A DNA stretch of 64,000 nucleotides from a virus (taxonomy: Duplodnaviria; Heunggongvirae; Uroviricota; Caudoviricetes): IMG/VR virus record IMGVR_UViG_2571042445_000002. One strand, 5' to 3'. A program made the position numbers and the translations under genes. Of this stretch, positions 974 through 42,746 are shown piece after piece (the stretch's first letter is position 1; each line of letters opens with the position of its first letter). Under the pieces are notes generated by a model. The model had not been told where the DNA came from, made no database searches, and worked only from the letters and a program-made list of their open reading frames with translations.

Positions 974-2400
974 GTATTACCGAATTACTGGACAAGTTTA
1001 ATGCCAAGCTGAACGAAAACCCCTGGTGGGCGCGATTTGTAAACAGCCAGTTTATTCAAATGCAGTCCGTTTTGGGCGCGCAGATTGTTTATATTGCGCG
1101 TACATTTGCAAGCCGTGCACTTACAGAAGGATTCATTTCCACCGCGACGCGTAGAGCAAGTATTCTCGCGGCAGCGGAAGACCGTGGCTATGTCGGTCGT
1201 TTGGTCGATGCGTCATACGGCACTGTTTCCATCACCAACAAAACCGACAGGGATATTACTCTACCCGGAGGGGCTGAATTACTGACAAGTGACCAGACAC
1301 CAATTGCAACCAGCAGTAGTGTTGTTATCCCTGCTGGTGAAACAGTACCCGGCATAGAAGTAAAACAGCATGAAGCAGTCAGCGTAACGTTCGACGTGGT
1401 GCAAGAAACACCATTCTTGACGCTGTTACTTTCCCGTGAGTTAACAGCAGAAGTCGCCAGCCTGGAAGTTGTCGTGATAACTAATGGTGTCGAGGAAAAA
1501 TGGACACATAACCCCCTGTTCCGCATGTCCAGGGATAACAGTAAACATTATGTGTTGGTTTATAAGCCGACAGAACAGATCGGCGTGCGCTTCGGTGATG
1601 GATCAATGGGGATGATGCCAGCGGCAGGGAGTCAGGTACGCATTGATATTATGGCAAGCCTCGGTGATTACACGCTGGCTGAAGGCCAGAAACTTGAACC
1701 AGCAGGGAACATCTCCGGGTATGTCGAATCACTGGAAGTAAAAACCGATTCGATCATTTCTGGCGGTGGTGGCATGGAAACTACCGAGGAAACCCGAAAC
1801 AGGGCGCAGTATTATGTGGCCTACGATGAGCAGGTTGTTTGGGGCGGTGATTACCGCCAGTTCATTCAGAACGTGGTCAGTGGCACGTCATGGCTTAACG
1901 TGTGGGGGGAGGCGCTACAGGAGAAAATCACGGGCTTTGATGTGCGTAATATCAACAAAATTTTCTTTTGTGGGCACAAGCCCGGCGTAACACAGGAAGC
2001 TCTGAAAACAGAGATATTATCAGCCCTTGAGAGTATCCCTAATGAGCTGAATAAGAAGTTCGAATACGTCGCCACCAATGAACAGCCGTTCAACATCAAA
2101 TTTACCGGTATCGTAAAAAAGAGTGTGCTGGTGGATGACGCGCTAACTGCAATTAAAGCGGCACTGGAGGAGAACTTCGGTAAAGACTCCATGTCATTTA
2201 GCCAGCTATTGCAGAGTGATGACGATTCACAGCAATGTTATGCACAGGTCAAAGTAAAAGATATCTGGCGAGTAATCGAATCGCTGGATATGTTCCTGTC
2301 TTATGACGTGGCTACGCAGAACATGAAAGAAGCTGTGTACTTTAATGATTTTGTTTATCTGGACGTGGAATCATCAACGTTCAGCATAACCTATCCGTAA
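970..2400 (+). CDS. baseplate J-like protein
   Basis: 476 aa; overlapping stop/start with flanking genes; position and size typical of J/gp47-type baseplate component. Confidence 0.4.
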   Translation: MSITELLDKFNAKLNENPWWARFVNSQFIQMQSVLGAQIVYIARTFASRALTEGFISTATRRASILAAAEDRGYVGRLVDASYGTVSITNKTDRDITLPGGAELLTSDQTPIATSSSVVIPAGETVPGIEVKQHEAVSVTFDVVQETPFLTLLLSRELTAEVASLEVVVITNGVEEKWTHNPLFRMSRDNSKHYVLVYKPTEQIGVRFGDGSMGMMPAAGSQVRIDIMASLGDYTLAEGQKLEPAGNISGYVESLEVKTDSIISGGGGMETTEETRNRAQYYVAYDEQVVWGGDYRQFIQNVVSGTSWLNVWGEALQEKITGFDVRNINKIFFCGHKPGVTQEALKTEILSALESIPNELNKKFEYVATNEQPFNIKFTGIVKKSVLVDDALTAIKAALEENFGKDSMSFSQLLQSDDDSQQCYAQVKVKDIWRVIESLDMFLSYDVATQNMKEAVYFNDFVYLDVESSTFSITYP

Positions 2401-2409
2401 GAGGTCACA

Positions 2410-3252
2410 ATGCAGAATAACTGGCTAAAAGAGCGTCTGACGCAATTTAAACAGGATTCTAAATTGTGGGCCGCCTTTGTTGATACGATTCAGGACGTGT
2501 GGAATGAATCGGTTGAACCTATTCTCACGCGAATAAGCAACCGTAAATCGTTTTTCACAATGGCAAGGGAGGATATGGACACTCGCATTGCTGAATATGG
2601 TCGTTTCTTTGTTATCACAGAAACGGACAAAACACGCAGGCCAATGCTATTAGCTCAACGACTGGATGAGGTGCACTTCAAAGGAACAGTAAGGCCGATA
2701 GAGCAAACGTTCTGGCGTGAATTTGGCACAATCCCCGTCTCATGGGAACCTTTGTATGCGCCTGTCGATACAGAAAAACATCCCTATGGTTCATTCTTCG
2801 CGACTGCAAATGAAATACCGACTGCTCAGGCACAATATGGTGAGTTTTTCCTGACATCCAGAGGGCTGGTTGTCGTCAACCAAAATAAGCTGTATCGAGC
2901 TTATGATAGCGATGACAGAGACGTTGCTGTACAGAAGCTACTTGCTGATTTTGATACGGTTATAGCGCCGCTATTGCCATTGCATATCGTGTTTGATGGT
3001 GTTTCTTTCCAGTTGAGCGCAACATTGCCGGAAATGGCGGAGATCCTGAATTGCTTATCTGCGGAAGTGTCCTTTATTGAGGGGGTGTACACGACGCAAG
3101 AGATGGTCGATGAACTATCTATTAGCGATACGATCATTCAATTAGACGGCATCCAGTTCGCAGGAAGGCCAGACCGGACGACGGAAAGAGTGCTTCATCT
3201 CGATGAACTCCCGCTCGACGCCTGGGCGCTGGATTATAATTTTGCACCTTAG
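2410..3252 (+). CDS. putative tail/baseplate protein
   Basis: 280 aa, follows baseplate J-like gene, followed by strong hairpin. Confidence 0.3.
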   Translation: MQNNWLKERLTQFKQDSKLWAAFVDTIQDVWNESVEPILTRISNRKSFFTMAREDMDTRIAEYGRFFVITETDKTRRPMLLAQRLDEVHFKGTVRPIEQTFWREFGTIPVSWEPLYAPVDTEKHPYGSFFATANEIPTAQAQYGEFFLTSRGLVVVNQNKLYRAYDSDDRDVAVQKLLADFDTVIAPLLPLHIVFDGVSFQLSATLPEMAEILNCLSAEVSFIEGVYTTQEMVDELSISDTIIQLDGIQFAGRPDRTTERVLHLDELPLDAWALDYNFAP

Positions 3253-3259
3253 CAAACCA

Positions 3260-3290
3260 GGCCCCACCAACCTGGGTGGGGCCATTTCTC
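3260..3290 (+). terminator. hairpin terminator candidate after baseplate genes
   Basis: 9-bp GC stem ggccccacc/ggtggggcc with 6-nt loop, then T-rich tract. Confidence 0.4.
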
Positions 3291-3308
3291 AAAACAAAAG
3301 ACCACTGG

Positions 3309-3324
3309 AAATCACAAACTGAAC
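3309..3324 (+). promoter_or_regulatory. candidate late-promoter element (AAATCACAAACTGAAC)
   Basis: one of four copies of a conserved 16-bp motif, 45 bp upstream of the tail-fibre operon start. Confidence 0.4.
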
Positions 3325-3368
3325 ATACTGCCCTTCGATTTATTGCTTGTTAAAGGGGCTATGTTCGT

Positions 3369-7358: not shown

Positions 7359-7781
7359 ATGGCAAAGTATTACAGCAAAGAGACTGGTGGTTTCTACGAC
7401 GACAGACTAAAAGAAGATTACGATAAAAACGGTTCATGGCCGTCCGATACTGTACATATACCTGATGACTTATATGATGAATTGTTATCAGGGTATGGCA
7501 ATGGGAAAATAATAATTGCAAATGGCGATGGTTATCCAATGTTATCTGACCCACAACCTATGAGCTTAGAGGATAGAGTCAGCATTGCTGAAAACACCAA
7601 AAGTAGTCTTATGAATGATGTGAGCATAAAAATATCAACGCTTCAGGATGCTGTTGATATGGATATTGCCACTGATGAGGAAATAGAAATGTTGACAAAG
7701 TTAAAGAGGTATAGAGTTCTTCTTAATAGAGTTGACACTTCTGTTGATGCAGATATCTCATGGCCTGAGATGCCTGTATAA
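7359..7781 (+). CDS. tfa: tail fibre assembly protein (Tfa / P1 U family)
   Basis: 140 aa; C-terminal RYRVLLNRVDTSVDADISWPEMP is the hallmark Tfa motif. Confidence 0.85.
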   Translation: MAKYYSKETGGFYDDRLKEDYDKNGSWPSDTVHIPDDLYDELLSGYGNGKIIIANGDGYPMLSDPQPMSLEDRVSIAENTKSSLMNDVSIKISTLQDAVDMDIATDEEIEMLTKLKRYRVLLNRVDTSVDADISWPEMPV

Positions 7782-8188
7782 ACAATCATAACAATCCAAT
7801 CAGCACTGCTTTTTTGATATTTCAAGCCCTCTTTTGTTGAGGGCTTTATTAGTGAGTGCTTTTGTGACCTTTTTTAGTAATACAATCCTTTGGTACAAAA
7901 AAGCCGCCGTCCAGTCAATGACGGCGGGCAAAATGAACACTCAGTTAGTGGTATCTGAGAGGGGGGCATTATATTCACTGAATGACGCTTGTGAAGACTC
8001 ACATGTCATCATTTTGTCCTCAAGAATCAGCTCACATCTTGCGCATTCAAGCGTATTTCTCTTTAAAGCCGTGTTTGGACCATTTTGTTGATACGCGAAT
8101 TTGGCATCCTCCACGCTCTGAGTGACGAGGTTTACGGACCACCGGGCCATCATATGCATCCATTTTGTGTGAATGGCATTTAGTCGGG

Positions 8189-9621: not shown

Positions 9622-11570
9622 TAAAGAAACCTATTCGAATAAATATCCAGTCCACTTTTGCAGATACGCTCACTGGATATACGCCTAATCGTTGGGTGGC
9701 GGAGGATATCACCGAGGATGATTTACTTATCGAGCCTGCGACGCTGGAAGATATCGAGCTGGCCTATATGGGCAACGAAATTTTGGTAACTACCAATGAG
9801 GCAATGTTCGAAGCTATAACCACAACAAAATTGCGGTTAGCGCAAACAATGCGAGCATTTGTCCGGGCGCTTAATCGCGGCCTGAATGGCACTGACATTG
9901 CTGCGGGTACGGATGAGGCAGGTGAATATGAAGACGGACGTAATAGTATCGGTGGGGCAATCATTGGGCGCGTGCGCCGGGTTGCTAATATCCCTGTTGT
10001 AACAGCACAAATACCTCTAACCGATGGACAAACGACAAGCATAATTTTCCATTCTCCAACCGCAGACGGCACAAGAATTAAAGGGGATGACGAGCTGGTT
10101 GCGTTTCAGTTTCTTCTTAACAAAAGAAACGTTACGCATGTTGTTGCGCCAATCGGTGGGCGTGATGTATCTCTGAGCCAGGTGTGTCAGGCGCTTTCTA
10201 ACCTCATTGAGCGTAACAGTGCAAAATTCAAAAAAGCAAAGGAGCGCCAGGACAAAATGAAGGCTGATATTGAGGGGTATCTCAATGAAGCCGACAAGCT
10301 GGCAGAAGAACGTTCTGTGCTGATTGAGCAGGTTGAAGACGCACAGCGGGGGCTGGCAGAGAAACGCTCAACACTCAATGATATGCAGAATAAATTAGAC
10401 GCACAAAAAGCCCTTAACGCGGAATTGCAGGCTAAGCGCGATAATTTATTGTCAGCTAAGAGCCAAGGAACTAAAGAGCGAGCCTTCAATGATCAACTGC
10501 GACACATAAAACATAATCTTGCTACAGAAGGCCAAACAACGCTGGATAATGGTGCTGTAGTTAAGTATGTCACGTCAGGCAGTGATAGCTTTGTCACGAT
10601 TGAGGCACCAGAAGGCAATTTCAGTATTGATGTCAGTGCTGTTAAAGGTGGGAGTTCAGCGGACGCTGCAACCAAATTACTTAAAGCCTATCGTGAACAT
10701 AATGCTGATCAATACAAAGTGGATGTGTTGCCGGGCCAGCCTGAGCCAACTGATCAGCCGCAGCCTGAACAGGAGCCACAACCAGCATCACATCCTGATC
10801 CCCTGGAGGTTGGTAAATATCGCTATGCGCTCCAATCTCGCCCGGCGGGTGTTGGTGCGGTTCCTGAAGGAAATAAAGCTGTACTTGACCGTCCTGATCA
10901 GGCTGATCCGTATTACGAATATGCTCGTCACGGAATCATTACGTATGACCGCAAACTGACAGATGAAGAAGTCAGTCAGTACGAGTTGCTATATCTCCCT
11001 GGTGACGATGAATTGAAAGAGATTGCAGGCGAATTGGTTGCGTCCAGTATGTCGAACCATATTGATGGCTACGTTGATCTGTTTGGAAGCGACTTGAAAA
11101 CCTTTAAGGCGCAGATAAAAATCCTCTTCCGCAAAGCATTTCCTAACGTCGCTTATCCACTTGGAGATGGGGAGAACCTTTTTATAATGGATATCTATAA
11201 CGCGCTTCAGAATCAATCAGAAGTAGTCGAAGCTGAACAGACATTAGATCAGGCGCCGGAAGCAGTACAAGAACCAGAACCTGAGTCTGAACCTGAATCC
11301 CCCCAAGAGTCTGATACAGGTTCAGATGGGCCAGTAGTTAGTGAGGCTGATCAGGAGGCGGACAGTGCGCTGGAATATCTGAAATCCGTGCCGTTGCAGT
11401 TTACGTCCCGTGATTTGACGGTGATTAGAGCGGAGTTTGATCGCATTCAGGAGGCAGCTAATGTTCTTATCAACGCAGGTCGATATGATGAGAACGAGTC
11501 ACTTGTTGGTGCGGCAGCCGATCACCTGATCAACATTCTGGCAGAGATACAACAAGGGGGCGTGTGGTGA
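9618..11570 (+). CDS. DarA-like head-associated antirestriction protein (putative)
   Basis: 650 aa (P1 DarA is about 639 aa as I recall) in the lysis-hdf-darA position; central coiled coil, acidic PEPE-rich linkers. Confidence 0.35.
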   Translation: MIKKPIRINIQSTFADTLTGYTPNRWVAEDITEDDLLIEPATLEDIELAYMGNEILVTTNEAMFEAITTTKLRLAQTMRAFVRALNRGLNGTDIAAGTDEAGEYEDGRNSIGGAIIGRVRRVANIPVVTAQIPLTDGQTTSIIFHSPTADGTRIKGDDELVAFQFLLNKRNVTHVVAPIGGRDVSLSQVCQALSNLIERNSAKFKKAKERQDKMKADIEGYLNEADKLAEERSVLIEQVEDAQRGLAEKRSTLNDMQNKLDAQKALNAELQAKRDNLLSAKSQGTKERAFNDQLRHIKHNLATEGQTTLDNGAVVKYVTSGSDSFVTIEAPEGNFSIDVSAVKGGSSADAATKLLKAYREHNADQYKVDVLPGQPEPTDQPQPEQEPQPASHPDPLEVGKYRYALQSRPAGVGAVPEGNKAVLDRPDQADPYYEYARHGIITYDRKLTDEEVSQYELLYLPGDDELKEIAGELVASSMSNHIDGYVDLFGSDLKTFKAQIKILFRKAFPNVAYPLGDGENLFIMDIYNALQNQSEVVEAEQTLDQAPEAVQEPEPESEPESPQESDTGSDGPVVSEADQEADSALEYLKSVPLQFTSRDLTVIRAEFDRIQEAANVLINAGRYDENESLVGAAADHLINILAEIQQGGVW

Positions 11571-11935
11571 AAATATCAGTAACGGAGCGCCTTAGCTTAG
11601 GCAAAGAACTGTCTGAGCTGATGTCTGCGCAAAAAAGCGCGACTGCGGTACAACGTGTCACTATTGGCGTGCGGATAGTTGAAGTGATGATGAAGCTGGG
11701 GCTTGGTTCATCGAATAATCCAGCACAACAGCAAGAAGAGGAAGTGCAACCGGCGGCACAAGAAACGCCTAAAATTGTTGCTGACTTCCTTAGTGGTGCA
11801 TTTACTAAATCATCACAAATGGAGTTCATCGATGCTTTGAGAGGCATATCTCAATATGTTGGTGAATTTTTGACACTCGACCAGGCCAAAGAACAGACCG
11901 TAAACTGGGTTTCAGCTAACGGGTATGCAGCGTAA
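11564..11935 (+). CDS. hypothetical protein (DdrA-like position)
   Basis: 123-aa ORF overlapping the upstream gene end. Confidence 0.25.
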   Translation: MVKISVTERLSLGKELSELMSAQKSATAVQRVTIGVRIVEVMMKLGLGSSNNPAQQQEEEVQPAAQETPKIVADFLSGAFTKSSQMEFIDALRGISQYVGEFLTLDQAKEQTVNWVSANGYAA

Positions 11936-32515: not shown

Positions 32516-32591
32516 TGATGGTGTAGCTCAGTGGTAGAGCAGTTGGCTGTTAACCAACTGGTCGGTGGTTCGAATCCACTCACCATCGCCA
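32516..32591 (+). tRNA. tRNA-Asn (anticodon GTT)
   Basis: 76 nt; acceptor gatggtg/caccatc, anticodon loop CTGTTAA, T-loop TTCGAAT, 3' CCA encoded. Confidence 0.85.
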
Positions 32592-32593
32592 AT

Positions 32594-32669
32594 GCCGGTT
32601 TAGCTCAGTTGGTAGAGCGCCTGCCTTGTAAGCAGGATGTCAGCGGTTCGAGTCCGTTAACCGGCACCA
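32594..32669 (+). tRNA. tRNA-Thr (anticodon TGT)
   Basis: 76 nt, 2 nt after tRNA-Asn; anticodon loop CTTGTAA; T-loop TTCGAGT; CCA encoded. Confidence 0.85.
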
Positions 32670-32671
32670 AC

Positions 32672-32760
32672 ACAACAGGTAAGGGTATTTTGCGACGTCG
32701 GAGATCGCCGAGCTTGGCAGAGGGTTCGAATCCCTACGAAGTACCCTTACCGTTGTGATG
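32672..32760 (+). ncRNA. tRNA-like hairpin element or pseudo-tRNA
   Basis: 15-bp stem acaacaggtaagggta/tacccttaccgttgt enclosing a T-arm-like GGTTCGAATCC; no full cloverleaf. Confidence 0.3.
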
Positions 32761-32857
32761 AATGCACAGGCTGATGTGCCGCAACTACAGTAGTGCGCGC
32801 TTTGCGGGGCTTGCTACAACCCTGTGTCGGAGTTCAGCACCGACCATCACAATCACT

Positions 32858-32944
32858 GGAGAGTAGGGAGCATGGTGCTCAAGCGGTCTTGAAAACCGTC
32901 CCATTGCGCAAGCGATGATGGTTCGATTCCATTACTCTCCGCCA
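32858..32944 (+). tRNA. tRNA-Ser-like (anticodon TGA), long variable arm, atypical D-arm
   Basis: acceptor ggagagt/actctcc, anticodon loop CTTGAAA, long variable arm, T-loop TTCGATT, CCA encoded. Confidence 0.5.
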
Positions 32945-33200
32945 GCGCAACGTTAAGAGTATTTGGCTAATTAAGCGAATGCCGGAAGCAGAACCGGATC
33001 ACCAAATGCTCTTACCATTGCGGTGAATGCGGCTAAGCGCACGCGGAACAGTTAAAACAGTAAAGGTGGTCTTTTTACTGGCGTAACGAGAATCCATAAG
33101 TGATCCGGCGTTAATTGTTAACTGGTTAACGTCACCGGGAGGCACCCGGCACCGCAACCTAACAGCAATGGCGTTTTGTCTTAAAAGGTGGCTGCAAGTG

Positions 33201-33329
33201 ATGGATTTTTGGGCGTTTGCCGATAAAAACCCGGAGTGGACATTATTGTTTCTGCTGGTGGTTGCATACGGGGTAGAGCAAGCGGCAAAAGCCTTACGCG
33301 GTTCTGGCAAAAAGCGTAAGCGTAATTAA
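33201..33329 (+). CDS. small membrane peptide (42 aa)
   Basis: ATG ORF MDFWAFADKNPEWTLLFLLVVAYGVEQAAKALRGSGKKRKRN, one TM helix plus basic tail; below the ORF-track size cutoff. Confidence 0.25.
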   Translation: MDFWAFADKNPEWTLLFLLVVAYGVEQAAKALRGSGKKRKRN

Positions 33330-33338
33330 CAGTAATCT

Positions 33339-33414
33339 GGCCCTTTAGCTCAGTGGTTAGAGCGGGCGACTCATAATCGCACGGTCACCGGTTCAAGTCC
33401 GGTAGGGGCCACCA
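33339..33414 (+). tRNA. tRNA-Ile2 (anticodon CAT, lysidine type)
   Basis: 76 nt, nearly identical over D-arm and anticodon arm to E. coli tRNA-Ile2 as I recall it; CCA encoded. Confidence 0.8.
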
Positions 33415-33866
33415 CATTTGGTTGTAACACGGCGTATGGCACATGCGTCGTTAGCGGTCTGGTGTAGCTGTTAGGTACCTTTTACTAACACTGCATGGGC
33501 ACACCAGGTAGCCGGAATGTGCAAGCCCCGTTCATAGCGTCGGACTGCGGATTCACCATCCTGGCGATTCGGTGTGACAGCCGGAAGAGCACGGCGTACA
33601 ACAGGAAAAGGCGTTTAATTAGCGTGAGCGCCGTTTCCGTTGTGGTAATTGCGGCTATGCGCTCGTGACGAAGCCATTTTCATTCACTACGTTCTGATAA
33701 GTGTCGTCGCCGGGCGTGGCTAACCTGGCAGGTGGAGGCACCACCGCCACAACTCCTTTCAATTCATCATATAGCCGCTCAGGCTGTAACCCTTAATTAA
33801 TACGAAGTTACGACGTCACTACCGGTTCAGCCGGGGGATAGTCGCGCGTGTAAAAAAGGAGACGTT

Positions 33867-34442
33867 ATGTTAACGGCGAACGATAACGCGTATTCAGAAG
33901 ATGATCTCGTTTTGAGTGACTTTATAGGGCGACGAGAATGCTGGACGCAAAAGCGCGAGGAGCTTTATGCAGCGTTAGTTCGTAAAGGCGTCAACATCGA
34001 AACCGCACAGAACGGTGATATGACAGTGGTAAGTGTTGGACTGCACGGCGTAAGTGTGTCAGCAATCAATCATGAGCCGTACATTGCGTTATCCGAGTCG
34101 ATGGTAAGGTTAGTTAAGTTCCTGAAGTACACAGAAGCGAATAACGTGATCATCGCCAAAAAGAACATCCCGTTCTCATCGGCCTTTTACTGGATGATGA
34201 AGGGGCTTGATGCCCGGCGAACATCATGGCCTAAAGGGAGCTATATATCGATGCTCCGTGGCAGTGTTGGTAGCAAAGAAAAGCTCGTCGAATTCCTGCC
34301 GGAAGAGGCATTCGATATTGTTGAAGGTTGTGATGTGATGGTTATGCCTCGCCTGGTAATGATGAATGGGGATTTACAGGCGCAGACAGACTGGTTTGCA
34401 ACTGGAGTTGATATTATCGCTACTGACTGGGAGGTTTTTTGA
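33867..34442 (+). CDS. DUF2829 (Tad2-like) domain protein with N-terminal extension
   Basis: 191 aa; C-terminal region has the W-x3-G-x3-RR-x2-W-x-G signature (FYWMMKGLDARRTSWPKG) and the DIIATDWEVF end. Confidence 0.4.
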   Translation: MLTANDNAYSEDDLVLSDFIGRRECWTQKREELYAALVRKGVNIETAQNGDMTVVSVGLHGVSVSAINHEPYIALSESMVRLVKFLKYTEANNVIIAKKNIPFSSAFYWMMKGLDARRTSWPKGSYISMLRGSVGSKEKLVEFLPEEAFDIVEGCDVMVMPRLVMMNGDLQAQTDWFATGVDIIATDWEVF

Positions 34443-34822
34443 TGTACGAGGCTACTAAATTACGCACTGAGGATGCGATGCACATTGGTTGGGACATCAT
34501 CACCTGCAAGATAACATCATGCAAGGCTACACGCACAGACGCCGGACACAAGAGCACAATATCAGGTTATGTCGTGATGTCAGTCAGGAGTGTGCGCATA
34601 CGCTTCAGATGGAAAGCCTGCCAGGTTACATCATCAATGCCGCTTACCGTCGAGCAGGATTATTTATGCTTACCCGAAATAGACGGAGCGTTGCTGGTGG
34701 GCAATAGTGGTCGAAAAGCCGATTTTGAAGCCAGTCTGAAGATGGCGCAGGCGGTGATCAACAAACATAAAGGGAAGTGGGAGGCAAAAGTTAAGCATGT
34801 TGTTCGTTTATCCCGCTGGTAG
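34439..34822 (+). CDS. hypothetical protein
   Basis: 127-aa ORF coupled to the upstream gene; an alternative-frame ORF overlaps it. Confidence 0.3.
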   Translation: MMYEATKLRTEDAMHIGWDIITCKITSCKATRTDAGHKSTISGYVVMSVRSVRIRFRWKACQVTSSMPLTVEQDYLCLPEIDGALLVGNSGRKADFEASLKMAQAVINKHKGKWEAKVKHVVRLSRW

Positions 34823-34855
34823 TGTTAGCAAATTGATATTAATTTTCTAATACAT
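34823..34855. promoter_or_regulatory. operator-like inverted pair upstream of the Lpa-like gene
   Basis: GTGTTAGCAAATTG and inverted TAATTTTCTAATACA. Confidence 0.5.
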
Positions 34856-34929
34856 CATGTTTTTGACAGTCTTCTCAGTATTAACAAGCTGATTATCATC
34901 CCCTCGGTCTTTTTCTATCCGGGGGATAA

Positions 34930-35322
34930 ATGGAGCAAATCAGTAGCGCCGAAATAGCGGATATCATGATCAGGGCTAACTGCTATCTGACGGTCACCGA
35001 AATCACCAGCCGTGCAAAAGCACAATATCCTCACCTTCATGTGTCGCGCGTAAACGTAAATAACATCATACGTTTTTTTGTTCGTTCCAGTCGTGCCATT
35101 TGCGAAATAGACGACCGCGTATACCCCCGGAAATATTGGTTACATGGCCTGAATGGATACCAGTTCAAGGTGCGCGGGCGCACTCCTGAATTCGGTCGGC
35201 TGTTGGTGAAAAACACCAACCGAAAGATAGAAGCTCAATTACGAAAGGAGCAGCGTCAGTTGGTGGCGATGACTAACCAGCTATGGAACGCCGCTGTGAA
35301 AAAACGTGAGGCTTCCCTATGA
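34930..35322 (+). CDS. Lpa-like late promoter activator (putative)
   Basis: 130 aa basic protein upstream of pacA-pacB (P1 order lpa-pacA-pacB-c1) and preceded by an operator pair. Confidence 0.4.
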   Translation: MEQISSAEIADIMIRANCYLTVTEITSRAKAQYPHLHVSRVNVNNIIRFFVRSSRAICEIDDRVYPRKYWLHGLNGYQFKVRGRTPEFGRLLVKNTNRKIEAQLRKEQRQLVAMTNQLWNAAVKKREASL

Positions 35323-36683
35323 CGTTAATTAACTGGGAAGCGCATCGAGCTAAGTTCCTGGAGTTAAGAGAAGAAACCGGGATCACCATAAAAGAATATT
35401 GCGAGCAGCATGACCTCAGCTTTAACACCGCCAGAAAGCATCTCAATATGAAAAAAAATGAGGTTAAGGCGAAAGCTAAGGCTACCGGGAAAAGTACAAA
35501 ACAGCGCGCAAAAAGCAGTGCCACCGGCTCAAAAAAAGAGCAAAAAAAGGCTAATAAAAGCACAGAATTTACAAAAACTGACAAATCGTTGGCTGGTGGA
35601 CGGTTCCGCGCCATGCCGCAAAAACAAAATGCGGATCACAAAGAAAAGCCAAGTAATAACAACAAGATACACAAGGATGTGAAGGGATCATTTTGTGATG
35701 AAATGGGAGAAATGATCCCTAAAAGCAGCGATAAAGCCCAACGAAACAAGGGATCATTGCAAATGATCCCTGATTCATCAGCTCAAAGCACCACTTTGCC
35801 TGCCACCAACGTCGCCCGTGAGATGATGAAGAACGGCGCGACTGAACATTTACGACTTGCGATACAGATGGCGCAGGAACGAGCAATTCAGTATCAGGCT
35901 ATCGTTGACCAGGAAGCGGAGCGACTACAGGAAGAGATTGACGCTCTCGGTGATACACAGCCAGAGGGGATGCACCCAGGGCAGCGTCTTCTCGGACTGA
36001 TCAGCGATGCGGCCTACTACATGAATGACTTTATCACCAGGCTGGCAGCCATCTATCAGAACGAGCAGAAGCTACGCCAGGGGGATGAAAAACTTGCGCA
36101 GGGCGCGCGTCAGCAGGCATTCAGGGAGGCTGAGGCCAGAGAAAAACTGGCGATTGCCCGCCTACAAGCCGAGCAGCGTGGCAAGGAGATTGAGTATCGC
36201 ATTGGCGCTGACGCACGCGCCGCCAGGGTTATCGCCGCCGCTATACGTATGCGTGAGCGCGAGGAGCTGGATGATATAGGTGTTGCTGAATATATCGAGC
36301 GGCAGGGCGTCAGTGTCCCGGCTATCCTGGCGGCACGAGCGGCAAAAGCGATCTCACTTCTGGAGCCTCCGGTTTCTGACGTTAACGATGTTGATGATGA
36401 GCAACTGGATAAAGAGGCGAAGCAGTTTGCCGAGCAACAAGCTGGACTCCCACAATGGCTTGCACAACGCCGGGCTGAAGTAGCGAAAATCGTTGATAGG
36501 CTTGGGATGGGGGATTACGACCGGAACGGAGAACGTAAAGCCGGTGAATTTGAGGCCAATGATGAAGACCTGAATATAGACCCTTCCGCCACGGCTGATA
36601 TCTACGGTGATTATGACGCGGGGGATACCGGTTTTGATGCTGTAGATGACGAGATTGCGATAGACCAGCCGGAGGATGACTAA
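35319..36683 (+). CDS. pacA: PacA-like terminase small subunit
   Basis: 454 aa; basic Lys-rich N-terminal region, acidic C-terminus; contains the GATC-rich candidate pac site; precedes the terminase ATPase. Confidence 0.5.
   Translation: MTLINWEAHRAKFLELREETGITIKEYCEQHDLSFNTARKHLNMKKNEVKAKAKATGKSTKQRAKSSATGSKKEQKKANKSTEFTKTDKSLAGGRFRAMPQKQNADHKEKPSNNNKIHKDVKGSFCDEMGEMIPKSSDKAQRNKGSLQMIPDSSAQSTTLPATNVAREMMKNGATEHLRLAIQMAQERAIQYQAIVDQEAERLQEEIDALGDTQPEGMHPGQRLLGLISDAAYYMNDFITRLAAIYQNEQKLRQGDEKLAQGARQQAFREAEAREKLAIARLQAEQRGKEIEYRIGADARAARVIAAAIRMREREELDDIGVAEYIERQGVSVPAILAARAAKAISLLEPPVSDVNDVDDEQLDKEAKQFAEQQAGLPQWLAQRRAEVAKIVDRLGMGDYDRNGERKAGEFEANDEDLNIDPSATADIYGDYDAGDTGFDAVDDEIAIDQPEDD
35680..35772. 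promoter_or_regulatory. candidate pac packaging site (four AGGGATCATT elements)
   Basis: GATC at 35686, 35714, 35752, 35765 as two inverted pairs within pacA; P1 pac is a cluster of Dam-site hexamers inside pacA. Confidence 0.4.
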
Positions 36684-38191
36684 TGGCTGGTGGTCGTAAG
36701 ATTAAGTGCGTCACCAGTGATCCACGTTGGCGCGATATGGTTATCAGGTATCGATACAACTTTACCCAGGCGGTTGTCGATATTTTTGGGATGTTCCCCT
36801 CCCACCAGCAGCAGCAGATCATTCAGTCAGTGCAGGAGACGGGGAGCAGGACGACCGTTACGTCCGGACACGGAACGGGTAAGTCGTCCCTTACCGCGAT
36901 GTTGCTACTAATTTTCATGATCCTGTTCCCCGACGCCCGCGTCATTATTGTTGCGAACAAAATAGGCCAGGTAAAAACAGGCGTATTCAAATACGTGAAA
37001 CAGTTTTGGGCGAATGCTGTTAAGCGTCACGGCTGGTTACAGACCTATTTTGTCCTGTCTGACACCATGTTTTATGAGCGTTCCCGTAAAGGGATATGGG
37101 AAGTGCTCTGTAAAGGTTATCGACTCGGTAACGAAGAGGCACTGGCGGGGGAGCACGCTGAGCATTTACTGCTAATCCTTGATGAAGCATCGGGCATATC
37201 CGATAAGGCGATTAACGTCATGACGGGGGCGTTAACGCAGAAAGATAACCGTATGCTCATGCTTTCCCAGCCTACGCGTCCAAGCGGTTACTTTTATGAA
37301 TCTCACCATTCAAGGGCAAAGGCAGAAGGCAATCCGGAAGGTGTCTGGACGGCAATAGTCCTTAACTCTGAAGAATCACCATTCGTTGAACCGAGCTTTA
37401 TTCGTGAGAAATTGCTGGAGTACGGCGGCAGGGATTCGCTGGAGTACATGGTTAAGGTGCTGGGCCAGTTCCCGCGTGCAATTAACGGGTATTTGCTTGG
37501 TCGTGATGAGTGCGACCGCGCCGCACGGCGTAAAGTGTTGCTGGAGAAAGATTGGGGCTGGGTAGCGACCGCTGACGTCGGTAATGGTCGCGACAAATCG
37601 GTGCTCAATATATGCAAAGTATCCGGTTATCGTGAGAAACGACGCGTTGTGAACTTTAAGATACTGGAGATGCCAGGCACTATGGACCCGTTGGCTTTTG
37701 CCGACTTTATCTATAACGAATGCACTCCTGATAAATACCCGAACATCACCATTGCTGTGGATGCTGATGGCTTTGGTTCAGATACGTGTGCGCAGCTTGT
37801 CCGCCGTGGTGCTAATCCCGTTCGCATCCGTTGGGGTAAGCCTATGTTTGCGCTGAGAGACAGAGAACGCTTTGTCAATCAGCGTGCTTACGCCAATATT
37901 ATGGCAGGGGATGCCATTAAATCCGGGCGTATGCGTATCGATAGTGACCCCAAAACCGCAGATCAGGCATCAAAAATCCCGTATATGCTTAACGAAGAAG
38001 GGAAGGTAGCGATGATGCGCAAGGAGCACATGCGGCAGAAGTTAAACATCAAGTCACCGGACAGATGGGATACCTACTGCTTCACTATGCTGGTGGATTA
38101 CGTGCCTGCTAATGAAGACATTGGCGCAGAACTCGCAACATTCCGCGATCAGGTGTTGGCAGAAGTGGATATTCCTGATATTGACATTTAA
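36683..38191 (+). CDS. pacB: PacB-like terminase large subunit
   Basis: 502 aa; Walker A-like SGHGTGKSSL; ATGA overlap with pacA. Confidence 0.55.
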   Translation: MAGGRKIKCVTSDPRWRDMVIRYRYNFTQAVVDIFGMFPSHQQQQIIQSVQETGSRTTVTSGHGTGKSSLTAMLLLIFMILFPDARVIIVANKIGQVKTGVFKYVKQFWANAVKRHGWLQTYFVLSDTMFYERSRKGIWEVLCKGYRLGNEEALAGEHAEHLLLILDEASGISDKAINVMTGALTQKDNRMLMLSQPTRPSGYFYESHHSRAKAEGNPEGVWTAIVLNSEESPFVEPSFIREKLLEYGGRDSLEYMVKVLGQFPRAINGYLLGRDECDRAARRKVLLEKDWGWVATADVGNGRDKSVLNICKVSGYREKRRVVNFKILEMPGTMDPLAFADFIYNECTPDKYPNITIAVDADGFGSDTCAQLVRRGANPVRIRWGKPMFALRDRERFVNQRAYANIMAGDAIKSGRMRIDSDPKTADQASKIPYMLNEEGKVAMMRKEHMRQKLNIKSPDRWDTYCFTMLVDYVPANEDIGAELATFRDQVLAEVDIPDIDI

Positions 38192-41093: not shown

Positions 41094-41578
41094 AAACTTA
41101 CTACCCATCCCTGAACTGTTATCCAACCACTAATCCTGAGCTGTCAGGGAAACTTCTGTCCCTCCTGGCTGATAGTCCTGATGAATGGCATAAGCCTGGT
41201 GATATCAACACACAGTTCCCTGAGTACGGGTGTATCCGCACCAGAAATGAGCTGAAGAACCTCATTGCTCACGGTTTTGTTCGTCACCGTAGCGGGAAAG
41301 GCTATCAGTTGGCTATCCCACAAGGAGAGGCAAGAGAACTCTTTGGCTATCGAGAAAGCCAGACGCAAGCGCGGGTGATCGCAGAAATTATCCGTAATGG
41401 CAGCGTCTATGCCCGCAAATTCTGGCTGTCTGGCGGTGGTGATGCATCACAGTTCTTGCGTGCTGTGCGATCGCTGGAGGAACAAGGTGTTATCGAGAAT
41501 ACCTGCGTCTCCGTTCCGACCGCTCCGCATATCAAACGCCGGATTTATACATTTACCCGGAGAGCTAAAAAGCAATGA
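41090..41578 (+). CDS. hypothetical protein
   Basis: 162 aa, ATGA overlap on both sides. Confidence 0.3.
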   Translation: MKTYYPSLNCYPTTNPELSGKLLSLLADSPDEWHKPGDINTQFPEYGCIRTRNELKNLIAHGFVRHRSGKGYQLAIPQGEARELFGYRESQTQARVIAEIIRNGSVYARKFWLSGGGDASQFLRAVRSLEEQGVIENTCVSVPTAPHIKRRIYTFTRRAKKQ

Positions 41579-42069
41579 TTAACGTGAAAGTGAAACGCCT
41601 TCATCCGGCGGCAAAACTCCCCGTTTACGCCACCGCCGGATCGGCGGCGATGGATTTTGTTGCTGTTGAAATAACGCCGGGTATCGATAGCAACGGCGCT
41701 ATTTCCTCAAGCTGGTGGGTGCATACCGGCCTCGCTATGGCGATCCCTCCTGGCTGGTGTCTGAAACTTTATCCTCGTTCCGGATTGGGCTGTAAAAAGC
41801 ATACGCGCCTGGCTAACTGCGTAGGAATTATCGACTCCGATTATCGCGGTGAAATCATGGCAAAACTGATTACAGATCCCGGTGGTGAAGGCGTTTGCCT
41901 CAAGCCAGGAATGGCGGTCATGCAAGGCATTTTTGAGCGTGTTGAACCGGTATCGCTGGTAGAAGTTGATGAACTCGATGAAACAGAGCGAGGCGCTGGT
42001 GGCTTTGGTAGCACATCGGAAGACCGCGTTGAAATCAAGCGTACACCGCTTCAGTACGCAAAGTTTTAA
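41575..42069 (+). CDS. dut: dUTP diphosphatase (dUTPase)
   Basis: 164 aa; motifs AGSAAMDF, RSGLG, GIIDSDYRGE, C-terminal FGSTS. Confidence 0.7.
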   Translation: MINVKVKRLHPAAKLPVYATAGSAAMDFVAVEITPGIDSNGAISSSWWVHTGLAMAIPPGWCLKLYPRSGLGCKKHTRLANCVGIIDSDYRGEIMAKLITDPGGEGVCLKPGMAVMQGIFERVEPVSLVEVDELDETERGAGGFGSTSEDRVEIKRTPLQYAKF

Positions 42070-42083
42070 GTAGAGGAAGGATT

Positions 42084-42746
42084 ATGGTCAGCACTTTTCA
42101 GGTGTTCCCCAAATACAAATGCCACAGCATCATTCGGGCATCGAAAATCAAAGATATTGTTATTGTCGGCGAAGCTTATGCGCCCATTTTTGGCAGTATC
42201 GAAGTCGTTGAGCCAAAAGGAATGACGCTTCGTGTTGATGGTGTGTTCTTGGAAAAATTCCGACCGCAAATAGGAGGATATCTCGTCACTGCTGAAAATG
42301 GCTATCTGGTCTATGTGCCAGAGAAAGCATTTGAAAAATGCTATAGCCGGGTTAACGACGCCTCCGAAAATGGGGTATCGCTCAGCATTGAAGGTCACAA
42401 TGGGGTGACATTCATTACAGCCAGGGACGTAACTATTTCTGCTGGCGGTATCGCTACTCTACAAGAAGAAATCGACCTTGAAGCAGCCGACTTTTCTGAC
42501 GCGCTGATGTGGCTGAAGGATGGCAAGAAAGTTGCCCGACGTGGGTGGAACGGCGAAAACCAATTCTGCTGGCTGGTTCCTGAAGGACAGTACCCGGCAC
42601 GAATGGAAGCCATTAAGGGATATTTTCCCGGCGACCTCGTTCCGTATGGTGCTTATTTCGCCTTAAAAAATGCACAAGGTGTAGTTGTTCCGTGGGTGCC
42701 TTCAGTTGGCGACCTGCTGGCCTGTGACTGGTTTGTTGTGGAGTGA
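42084..42746 (+). CDS. DUF2829 (Tad2-like) domain protein with N-terminal extension
   Basis: 220 aa; C-terminal ALMWLKDGKKVARRGWNGENQFCWLVPEG...VVPWVPSVGDLLACDWFVVE matches the DUF2829 signature. Confidence 0.5.
   Translation: MVSTFQVFPKYKCHSIIRASKIKDIVIVGEAYAPIFGSIEVVEPKGMTLRVDGVFLEKFRPQIGGYLVTAENGYLVYVPEKAFEKCYSRVNDASENGVSLSIEGHNGVTFITARDVTISAGGIATLQEEIDLEAADFSDALMWLKDGKKVARRGWNGENQFCWLVPEGQYPARMEAIKGYFPGDLVPYGAYFALKNAQGVVVPWVPSVGDLLACDWFVVE

Follow-up and report, generated by a model that had tools for sequence, protein, structure and literature searches.

A diverged Tad2-family (DUF2829) protein with a fused dsRBD-like N-terminal domain at a conserved site in D6-like phage-plasmids

Does a phage-plasmid that carries two different DUF2829 fusion proteins encode two sponges for different signals? 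The question was raised by an earlier note on the window, by which we mean the whole 64,000-nt stretch of DNA analyzed here, a D6-like phage-plasmid of the P1 family. The note had described a 191-aa ORF as a second, diverged DUF2829-like protein next to a tRNA island, with a C-terminal region that repeats the family pattern and an unrelated N-terminal domain. The ORF list gives a well-formed frame at this place (Table 1); both strings on which the description was based lie within it (FYWMMKGLDARRTSWPKG at residues 107-124 and DIIATDWEVF at residues 182-191), and its start is 453 bp past the last of four tRNA genes, beside the island as described. DNA of the region is 85% identical to that of phage D6, in which the counterpart is orf6, annotated 'hypothetical protein' (92.7% amino acid identity). 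Between the two genes dN/dS is 0.07 overall, 0.10 in the N-terminal and 0.04 in the C-terminal domain, so the gene is real and purifying selection acts on both of its halves. We count this strong selection and the strong ribosome-binding site in favor of the integrity of the gene, which PHROG 7362 matches over its full length (E=1e-131). Upstream of the gene, a scan for sigma-70 promoters and terminators gave nothing above shuffled sequences and no repeats were found in the spacer; as a test for early expression we searched the window for the P1 C1 operator consensus and found no site.

Table 1. Positions in the window of the locus, its neighbors and the second Tad2-domain gene.
Feature	Position	Strand	Remarks
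tRNA cluster: Asn-GTT, Thr-TGT, Ser-TGA, Met-CAT	32517..33414	+	ARAGORN
Shine-Dalgarno sequence AAGGAG, strong	33856..33861	+	5 nt before ATG; read from sequence
CDS of the two-domain Tad2-like protein, D6 orf6 homolog	33867..34442	+	191 aa
N-terminal domain, residues 1-98, predicted dsRBD-like fold, without Pfam family	33867..34160	+	
C-terminal Tad2-like domain (DUF2829, PF11195), residues 103-190, 'W-P-x-G' subclade	34173..34436	+	
Downstream ORF	34442..34822	+	126 aa; ATG overlaps the stop of the preceding CDS (TGATG)
lpa (late promoter activator), pacA and pacB, conserved downstream neighbors	34930..38191	+	D6 annotation
Canonical Tad2-domain fusion protein	42084..42746	+	220 aa; PF11195 E=1.6e-22

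The Tad2-like family PF11195 matched the C-terminal domain with E=4.4e-10 and 40.4 bits, against a curated gathering cutoff of 25 bits, and the match covered profile positions 3-72 of 73. An AlphaFold2 model of the protein, made with 39 family sequences as input (mean pLDDT 89.7), predicts the Tad2 fold, in which a helix at the N-terminus precedes an antiparallel sheet that has loops inserted. Using Foldseek against the PDB, we found that the top seven matches were all Tad2 structures: ModTad2 (9eib), SPO1 Tad2 (8wje and 8smf), HgmTad2/AcrIIA7 (8kbi, 8kbk and 8kbj) and SptTad2 (8wjd), with TM scores of 0.62-0.77 normalized to the length of the query. The DUF2829/Tad2 relationship that the note had claimed is therefore borne out by profile and structure searches alike, and the protein is a diverged member of the Tad2 (DUF2829) family. 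In a sequence search of the PDB the sole relative was SptTad2, matched over its full length at a weak E=0.53, which shows how strongly the Tad2 domain has diverged; a scan of the protein against NCBIfam found no relevant model. The family assignment itself had already been made by Pfam and RefSeq. 'Thoeris anti-defense Tad2 family protein' is the name given to the Pantoea homologs, and the E. coli plasmid copy WP_016262431.1 is named 'MW1434 family type I TA system toxin'. Because one Pantoea protein entry bears both names, Tad2 at NCBI and 'MW1434 family...' in UniRef, we take 'MW1434' to be an older label for the PF11195 domain.

We mapped the protein onto the published ligand contacts of HgmTad2 (10.1101/2023.11.15.567273) and SPO1 Tad2 (10.1101/2023.05.01.538930). 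Three residues of the gcADPR pocket of HgmTad2 are retained, W21 as W121, W87 as W176 and D93 as D182. In the diphosphate-binding loop, P122 takes the place of N22 and G23 has no counterpart, and the polar contacts S90 and T92 correspond to T179 and V181. None of the four side chains that contact cGG is kept (R31 is L130, S47 is F143, F70 is V159 and N85 is T174), although the alignment of these contacts is less certain within the insertion. Across the aligned fusion family W121 and W176 are invariant; the equivalent pair, W25/W73 in SPO1 Tad2 and W21/W87 in HgmTad2, stacks on the ligand (10.1101/2023.05.01.538930, 10.1101/2023.11.15.567273). The other invariant residues are A106, W109, G113, R118, G132, P145, D187 and W188, and those that follow W121 vary. 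Asp182 is kept in 10 of 13 sequences (the protein and 12 relatives) and replaced in three, S90 and T92 are not conserved, and the W-N-G loop with its Asn22/Gly23 is absent from every member of the fusion family, the position after the Trp varying among P, R, D, M, G, N and H. In HgmTad2, a W21A/N22A double mutant, in which N22 is one of two changed residues, showed markedly reduced gcADPR binding. We count the loss of the Asn-Gly loop, of S90/T92 and of all cGG contacts against the protein acting as a sponge.

As tetramers, Tad2 proteins act as sponges for 3'cADPR (10.1101/2023.05.01.538930); in some of them a second pocket takes up cyclic dinucleotides as well (10.1101/2023.11.15.567273), and the ligands of ModTad2 include His-ADPR and cUMP. 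When 18 Tad2 homologs were screened, inhibition by the family extended to CBASS, Pycsar and Thoeris I, II and IV, and its specificity proved very plastic (10.1101/2025.08.24.671296). The closest relatives of the 191-aa protein in that screen are the 'WP' homologs Tad2_69, Tad2_72 and Tad2_80, with 31%, 27% and 33% identity (E=8e-10 to 2e-5). According to its Table S2 (10.1101/2025.08.24.671296), Tad2_69 was negative on all seven systems, Tad2_72, which has the sequence WPKN, scored positive only in the plaque-assay column, against type I Thoeris, Tad2_80 had no positive in any assay run, and Tad2_79, which has a W-S-K-D loop, inhibited Thoeris I and IV. The results for Tad2_69 and Tad2_80 again count against a sponge function. 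Tad2_79 and Tad2_72 are without WNG and yet scored positive, so loss of WNG alone does not abolish sponge activity.

The other DUF2829 protein of the window, at 42084..42746, carries R-G-W-N-G (the GWNG loop) and D-L-L-A-x-D-W motifs and matches ModTad2 (9eib) with E=5.8e-20. [quoted passage not shown] The element thus does contain two proteins with a PF11195 domain, and their N-terminal regions, as the note had it, show no sequence relationship (BLASTP E=0.56 over 11 aa; different PHROGs matched). Even the Tad2 domains are only weakly alike (BLASTP E=0.002, 25% identity), and the two proteins belong to clearly different Tad2 subclades. The W-P-K-G loop, the lost cGG contacts and the screen results for relatives, set against the canonical 220-aa protein, all fit a different specificity, so that, as far as sequences can tell, two sponges with different ligand specificities are plausible. 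The pairing is not special to this element: both genes are widespread, and several D6/P1-like accessions occur in both match lists. The gene at 42084 adjoins a dUTPase gene (41575..42069), and the N-terminal region of its product, of about 130 aa, matches phrog_11049 and phrog_9467 and weakly the Dec protein of phage L (6e3c, E=0.002). This region may be another candidate for 'guilt by fusion'.

We modeled residues 1-100 of the 191-aa protein separately (pLDDT 90.3). The predicted fold is alpha-beta-beta-beta-alpha with a dsRBD-like core, which, on this model, is the fold class of the sponge Acb4. Pairwise BLASTP against SPO1 Acb4 gave E=0.002 for that single comparison, with 24% identity over 78 aa in the right topological register. 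Profile methods gave weaker values: a scan of the N-terminal domains of 16 family members with PF13876 (Acb4) found no match at E<=10, a custom Acb4 HMM from 87 sequences scored the family at about 3 bits, the best match of the reverse HMM in an Acb4 set of 91 sequences was not significant (E=0.022), and profile-profile alignment of the domain to Acb4 with hhalign, local and global, returned probabilities of 0.8-2.7% (P=0.017-0.07). Sequence comparison therefore lends statistical support neither to homology with Acb4 nor to membership in that family. The nucleobase-pocket motif NFNxEIG, which in Acb4 lies in an extended beta3-alpha4 loop, is absent from the protein, whose loop is about 9 residues shorter. 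The RNA-binding features of dsRBDs, a basic K-K-x-A-K at the start of helix 2 and a G-P-x-H loop, are absent too; helix 2 starts with HEPYIALSES, and the domain is net acidic (10 K+R versus 13 D+E).

A structure search of BFVD with the N-terminal domain found no match at E<=0.001; geometrically, it came closest to a 1r7l-type 'phage ABA sandwich' protein and to an uncharacterized protein of a Bacillus phage. Searches for the domain alone or in other architectures turned up only frameshifted or truncated copies of the same family. Fusions of Tad2 to other sponge domains are common and functional, as in the Acb4-Tad2 protein of Pm86 (10.1101/2025.07.12.664507). Among 91 sampled ORFs of the Acb4 family we found five Acb4-Tad2 fusions of 185-223 aa, all with a GWNGKG loop, in agreement with the published report that such fusions are frequent. 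In Alcaligenes phage vB_Af_QDWS595 (record positions 1940-3055), a DUF2829 gene, gp05, lies directly upstream of the Acb4-family gene gp06, which has a C-terminal extension; this unfused Tad2 and Acb4 pair stands just before the small terminase.

An exhaustive phmmer search of 1.8 billion representatives returned only 19 clusters at E<=0.001, and all matches that covered the N-terminal domain covered the Tad2-like domain as well. Standalone proteins of 108-130 aa with the same R-R-x-x-W-P-x-G motif exist (P0023, P0025 and P0027). One apparent match, P0012, a plant-like protein of 4941 aa made of near-identical tandem repeats (E=1e-23), was rejected as an artefact in which 16 weak stretches had been summed; it advises caution when summed HMMER scores are read. 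By tblastn the gene occurs in 127 plasmids, 125 of them non-mobilizable, and the plasmids listed with it measure 75 to 97 kb, with one exception. Their hosts are Escherichia, Salmonella, Shigella, Enterobacter, Pantoea and Acinetobacter. In the E. coli plasmid pMUB-MIN14-1 the region is 99.9% identical in nucleotides and the protein copy, WP_016262431.1, is 99.5% identical, differing by about one residue. The gene is absent from P1 and from all phage records except D6. Surveys based on DefenseFinder have reported 'Tad2' in 93% of D6-group and 56% of P1-group phage-plasmids (10.1101/2025.09.12.675607).

In D6, orf6 stands between the tRNA/tciAB region and lpa-pacA-pacB-c1, and the conserved genes downstream, lpa-pacA-pacB, define its syntenic site. 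This site is constant: in the Enterobacter, Pantoea and Acinetobacter elements the gene again lies past pmgS and the tRNAs and ahead of lpa-pacA-pacB, encoding proteins of 46%, 24% and 20% identity, respectively. Compared with the Pantoea element, Lpa is 39% identical, PacA 26%, PmgS 26% and the Tad2-like protein 24%. Divergence in step with Lpa, PacA and PmgS implies that the gene diverged with the backbone and was not recently swapped in. A fixed syntenic site and co-divergence resemble a backbone gene more than swappable anti-defense cargo, and we count this pattern, too, against a sponge function.

The sequence around the gene differs among elements. D6 carries tciA and tciB between tRNA-Ser and orf6 (D6 11221-11819). 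The window is without tciA there and has instead a 53-aa ORF (33168..33329) and tRNA-Met(CAT) (33339..33414); P1 and P7 resemble the window in having at that place a related tRNA, annotated trnI/tRNA-Ile. In the interval from the Tad2-like gene to lpa, or immediately upstream, the cargo differs by lineage, with a gene for a PemK-like toxin at 7402-7869 of the Pantoea plasmid and one for an SPFH/Band 7 protein at 2499-3338 of the Acinetobacter plasmid. P1 has the phd-doc addiction module in the equivalent region. Such lineage-specific cargo suggests a variable accessory slot beside a conserved gene.

Overlapping the stop codon of the Tad2-like gene is the start of the downstream ORF, which matched PHROG 7004 only, with no match in PDB, Pfam or NCBIfam, and so has no known family. 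It was found in 119 plasmids and adjoins the Tad2-like gene wherever coordinates were compared; a P1-like plasmid of Acinetobacter has a homolog of 32% identity in the same overlapping position. It is missing in the Enterobacter element and other genes take its place in the Pantoea element. The product of the downstream ORF is probably a co-translated partner of the Tad2-like protein. It is about 68% identical to the D6-group copy, versus 92.7% for the Tad2-like protein, and in pMUB-MIN14-1 RefSeq annotates only a 61-aa piece of it. The spacer between this ORF and lpa is flanked by an imperfect 16-nt inverted repeat (34807..34930; 81% complementary, 92 nt apart), inside which is a weak sigma-70-like site (34872-34899).

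From the fold, the retained pocket tryptophans and the precedent of the family, we consider it most likely, at about even chances, that the protein is an oligomeric signal sponge with altered specificity. The C-terminal domain would assemble into an oligomer, like known Tad2 proteins, and trap an immune signal of the host, a nucleotide derivative, in a pocket at the interface, with the retained Trp121, Trp176 and Asp182 as its lining. Its beta1-beta2 loop, rebuilt as W-P-K-G and one residue shorter without the Asn-Gly, would give it a ligand preference unlike that of the canonical Tad2 at 42084..42746. By analogy with known Acb4-Tad2 and Sequestin-Tad2 fusions, the dsRBD-like N-terminal domain may be a fused accessory module, providing a second binding or oligomerization function or tethering the sponge. 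The overlapping downstream ORF would probably be made together with it, and the gene is inherited vertically in D6-like phage-plasmids as well as in more distant P1-like ones.

The main rival, which we hold to be possible but clearly less probable, is that the Tad2 fold has been re-purposed for a regulatory or structural function of the phage-plasmid, tied to the downstream ORF, lpa and pacAB, and that no immune signal is sequestered. Much of what we counted against a sponge favors it: the site ahead of lpa-pacAB is conserved in Escherichia, Enterobacter, Pantoea and Acinetobacter elements, divergence equals that of backbone proteins, the Asn-Gly loop and all cGG contacts are lost family-wide, the nearest tested homolog was inactive on seven systems, and conservation of the translationally coupled ORF extends to Acinetobacter. 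However, the gene is missing from P1 and from phage records other than D6, and absence from P1 means that it is not essential to a P1-type life cycle. The pocket tryptophans are still invariant, the cited Tad2 literature documents no DUF2829 protein that is not a sponge, and seven defense systems are a small sample of known signals. A double sponge, in which the N-terminal part would be a new sponge domain or an Acb4-type one (dsRBD fold) that has diverged greatly and the protein would block two signaling pathways like the Acb4-Tad2 fusion of Pm86, appears unlikely. The predicted alpha-beta-beta-beta-alpha fold, the single BLASTP value against SPO1 Acb4, purifying selection on the domain and natural Acb4-Tad2 fusions of the same domain order and size (10.1101/2025.07.12.664507) point toward it, but PF13876 matches none of the 16 members, the Acb4 HMM and hhalign results are as poor as given above, and the NFNxEIG loop of the Acb4 adenine pocket is deleted.

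Two further readings have far lower standing. Type I toxins are short hydrophobic peptides. That the protein is such a toxin, as the RefSeq product name of WP_016262431.1 and its relatives would have it, is close to refuted: the name survives from older labeling of PF11195, none of the toxin models in NCBIfam matches, and the 191-aa protein is net acidic and, in the model, globular with two domains. Besides the name, what speaks for a toxin are the PemK-like gene nearby in Pantoea and the phd-doc module in the equivalent region of P1. Still more improbable is an AcrIIA7-like anti-CRISPR, a reading that derives from HgmTad2 (AcrIIA7), a DUF2829 protein once reported to inhibit Cas9 (10.1101/2023.11.15.567273). 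A mechanism of Cas9 inhibition was never shown, the family has been reinterpreted as sponges, and the HgmTad2/AcrIIA7 chain was not reached at E=10 in our PDB sequence search. Type II CRISPR-Cas is not known to be common in the Enterobacterales hosts. Returning to the signal sponge with altered specificity, a more elaborate form of it is conceivable, if improbable: a new or extremely diverged Acb4-like N-terminal domain and a Tad2 domain retuned to a ligand other than gcADPR, perhaps with the downstream ORF, would together give D6/P1-like phage-plasmids a sponge for several signals, inherited vertically and aimed at defense signals beyond those of the canonical Tad2.

Clinical E. coli, Shigella and Salmonella commonly carry phage-plasmids of the P1/D6 type. 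With its rebuilt pocket and the fused domain that has no annotation, the protein is a ready test case for whether the 'W-P-x-G' subclade binds a signal that current panels miss, and for whether 'guilt by fusion' reveals another sponge domain. If its function proves to be a different one, this would be the first documented case of the DUF2829 fold serving as anything but a sponge, and a warning against automatic "anti-Thoeris" labels.

The protein shares with the solved Tad2 proteins (8smf, 8kbi, 8wjd and 9eib) the alpha1 helix, the R-x-x-W motif, the second pocket Trp and the conserved C-terminal D-(I/L)-(I/L)-A-x-D-W motif, and it resembles the Hgm and Spt types in its long beta2-beta5 insertion with an (F/V)-(L/P)-P motif. 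It differs from them in having W-P-K-G, one residue shorter, where they have W-N-G-K, in its 98-aa N-terminal domain and in its marginal sequence similarity (E=0.53). Tad2_69, Tad2_72 and Tad2_80 have the R-R-x-x-W-P motif in common with it but are single-domain proteins of 73-108 aa, whereas the protein described here has two domains in 191 aa. Its companion at 42084 on the same phage-plasmid is likewise an N-terminal extension followed by a C-terminal Tad2 domain, although canonical with a GWNG loop where the 191-aa protein belongs to the 'W-P-x-G' subclade. With PDB 1r7l, a 'phage ABA sandwich' protein encoded by a Bacillus cereus prophage, the protein has no significant sequence relationship (profile E=0.58). 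Its general layout and size are shared by the Acb4-Tad2 fusions of Pasteurella phages Pm86 and Pmp13 (10.1101/2025.07.12.664507), in which a dsRBD-fold N-terminal domain likewise precedes Tad2 in fusions of 185-223 aa; those proteins combine a true PF13876 domain with the NFNxEIG loop and a canonical GWNGKG Tad2, and the protein of the D6-like element has neither.
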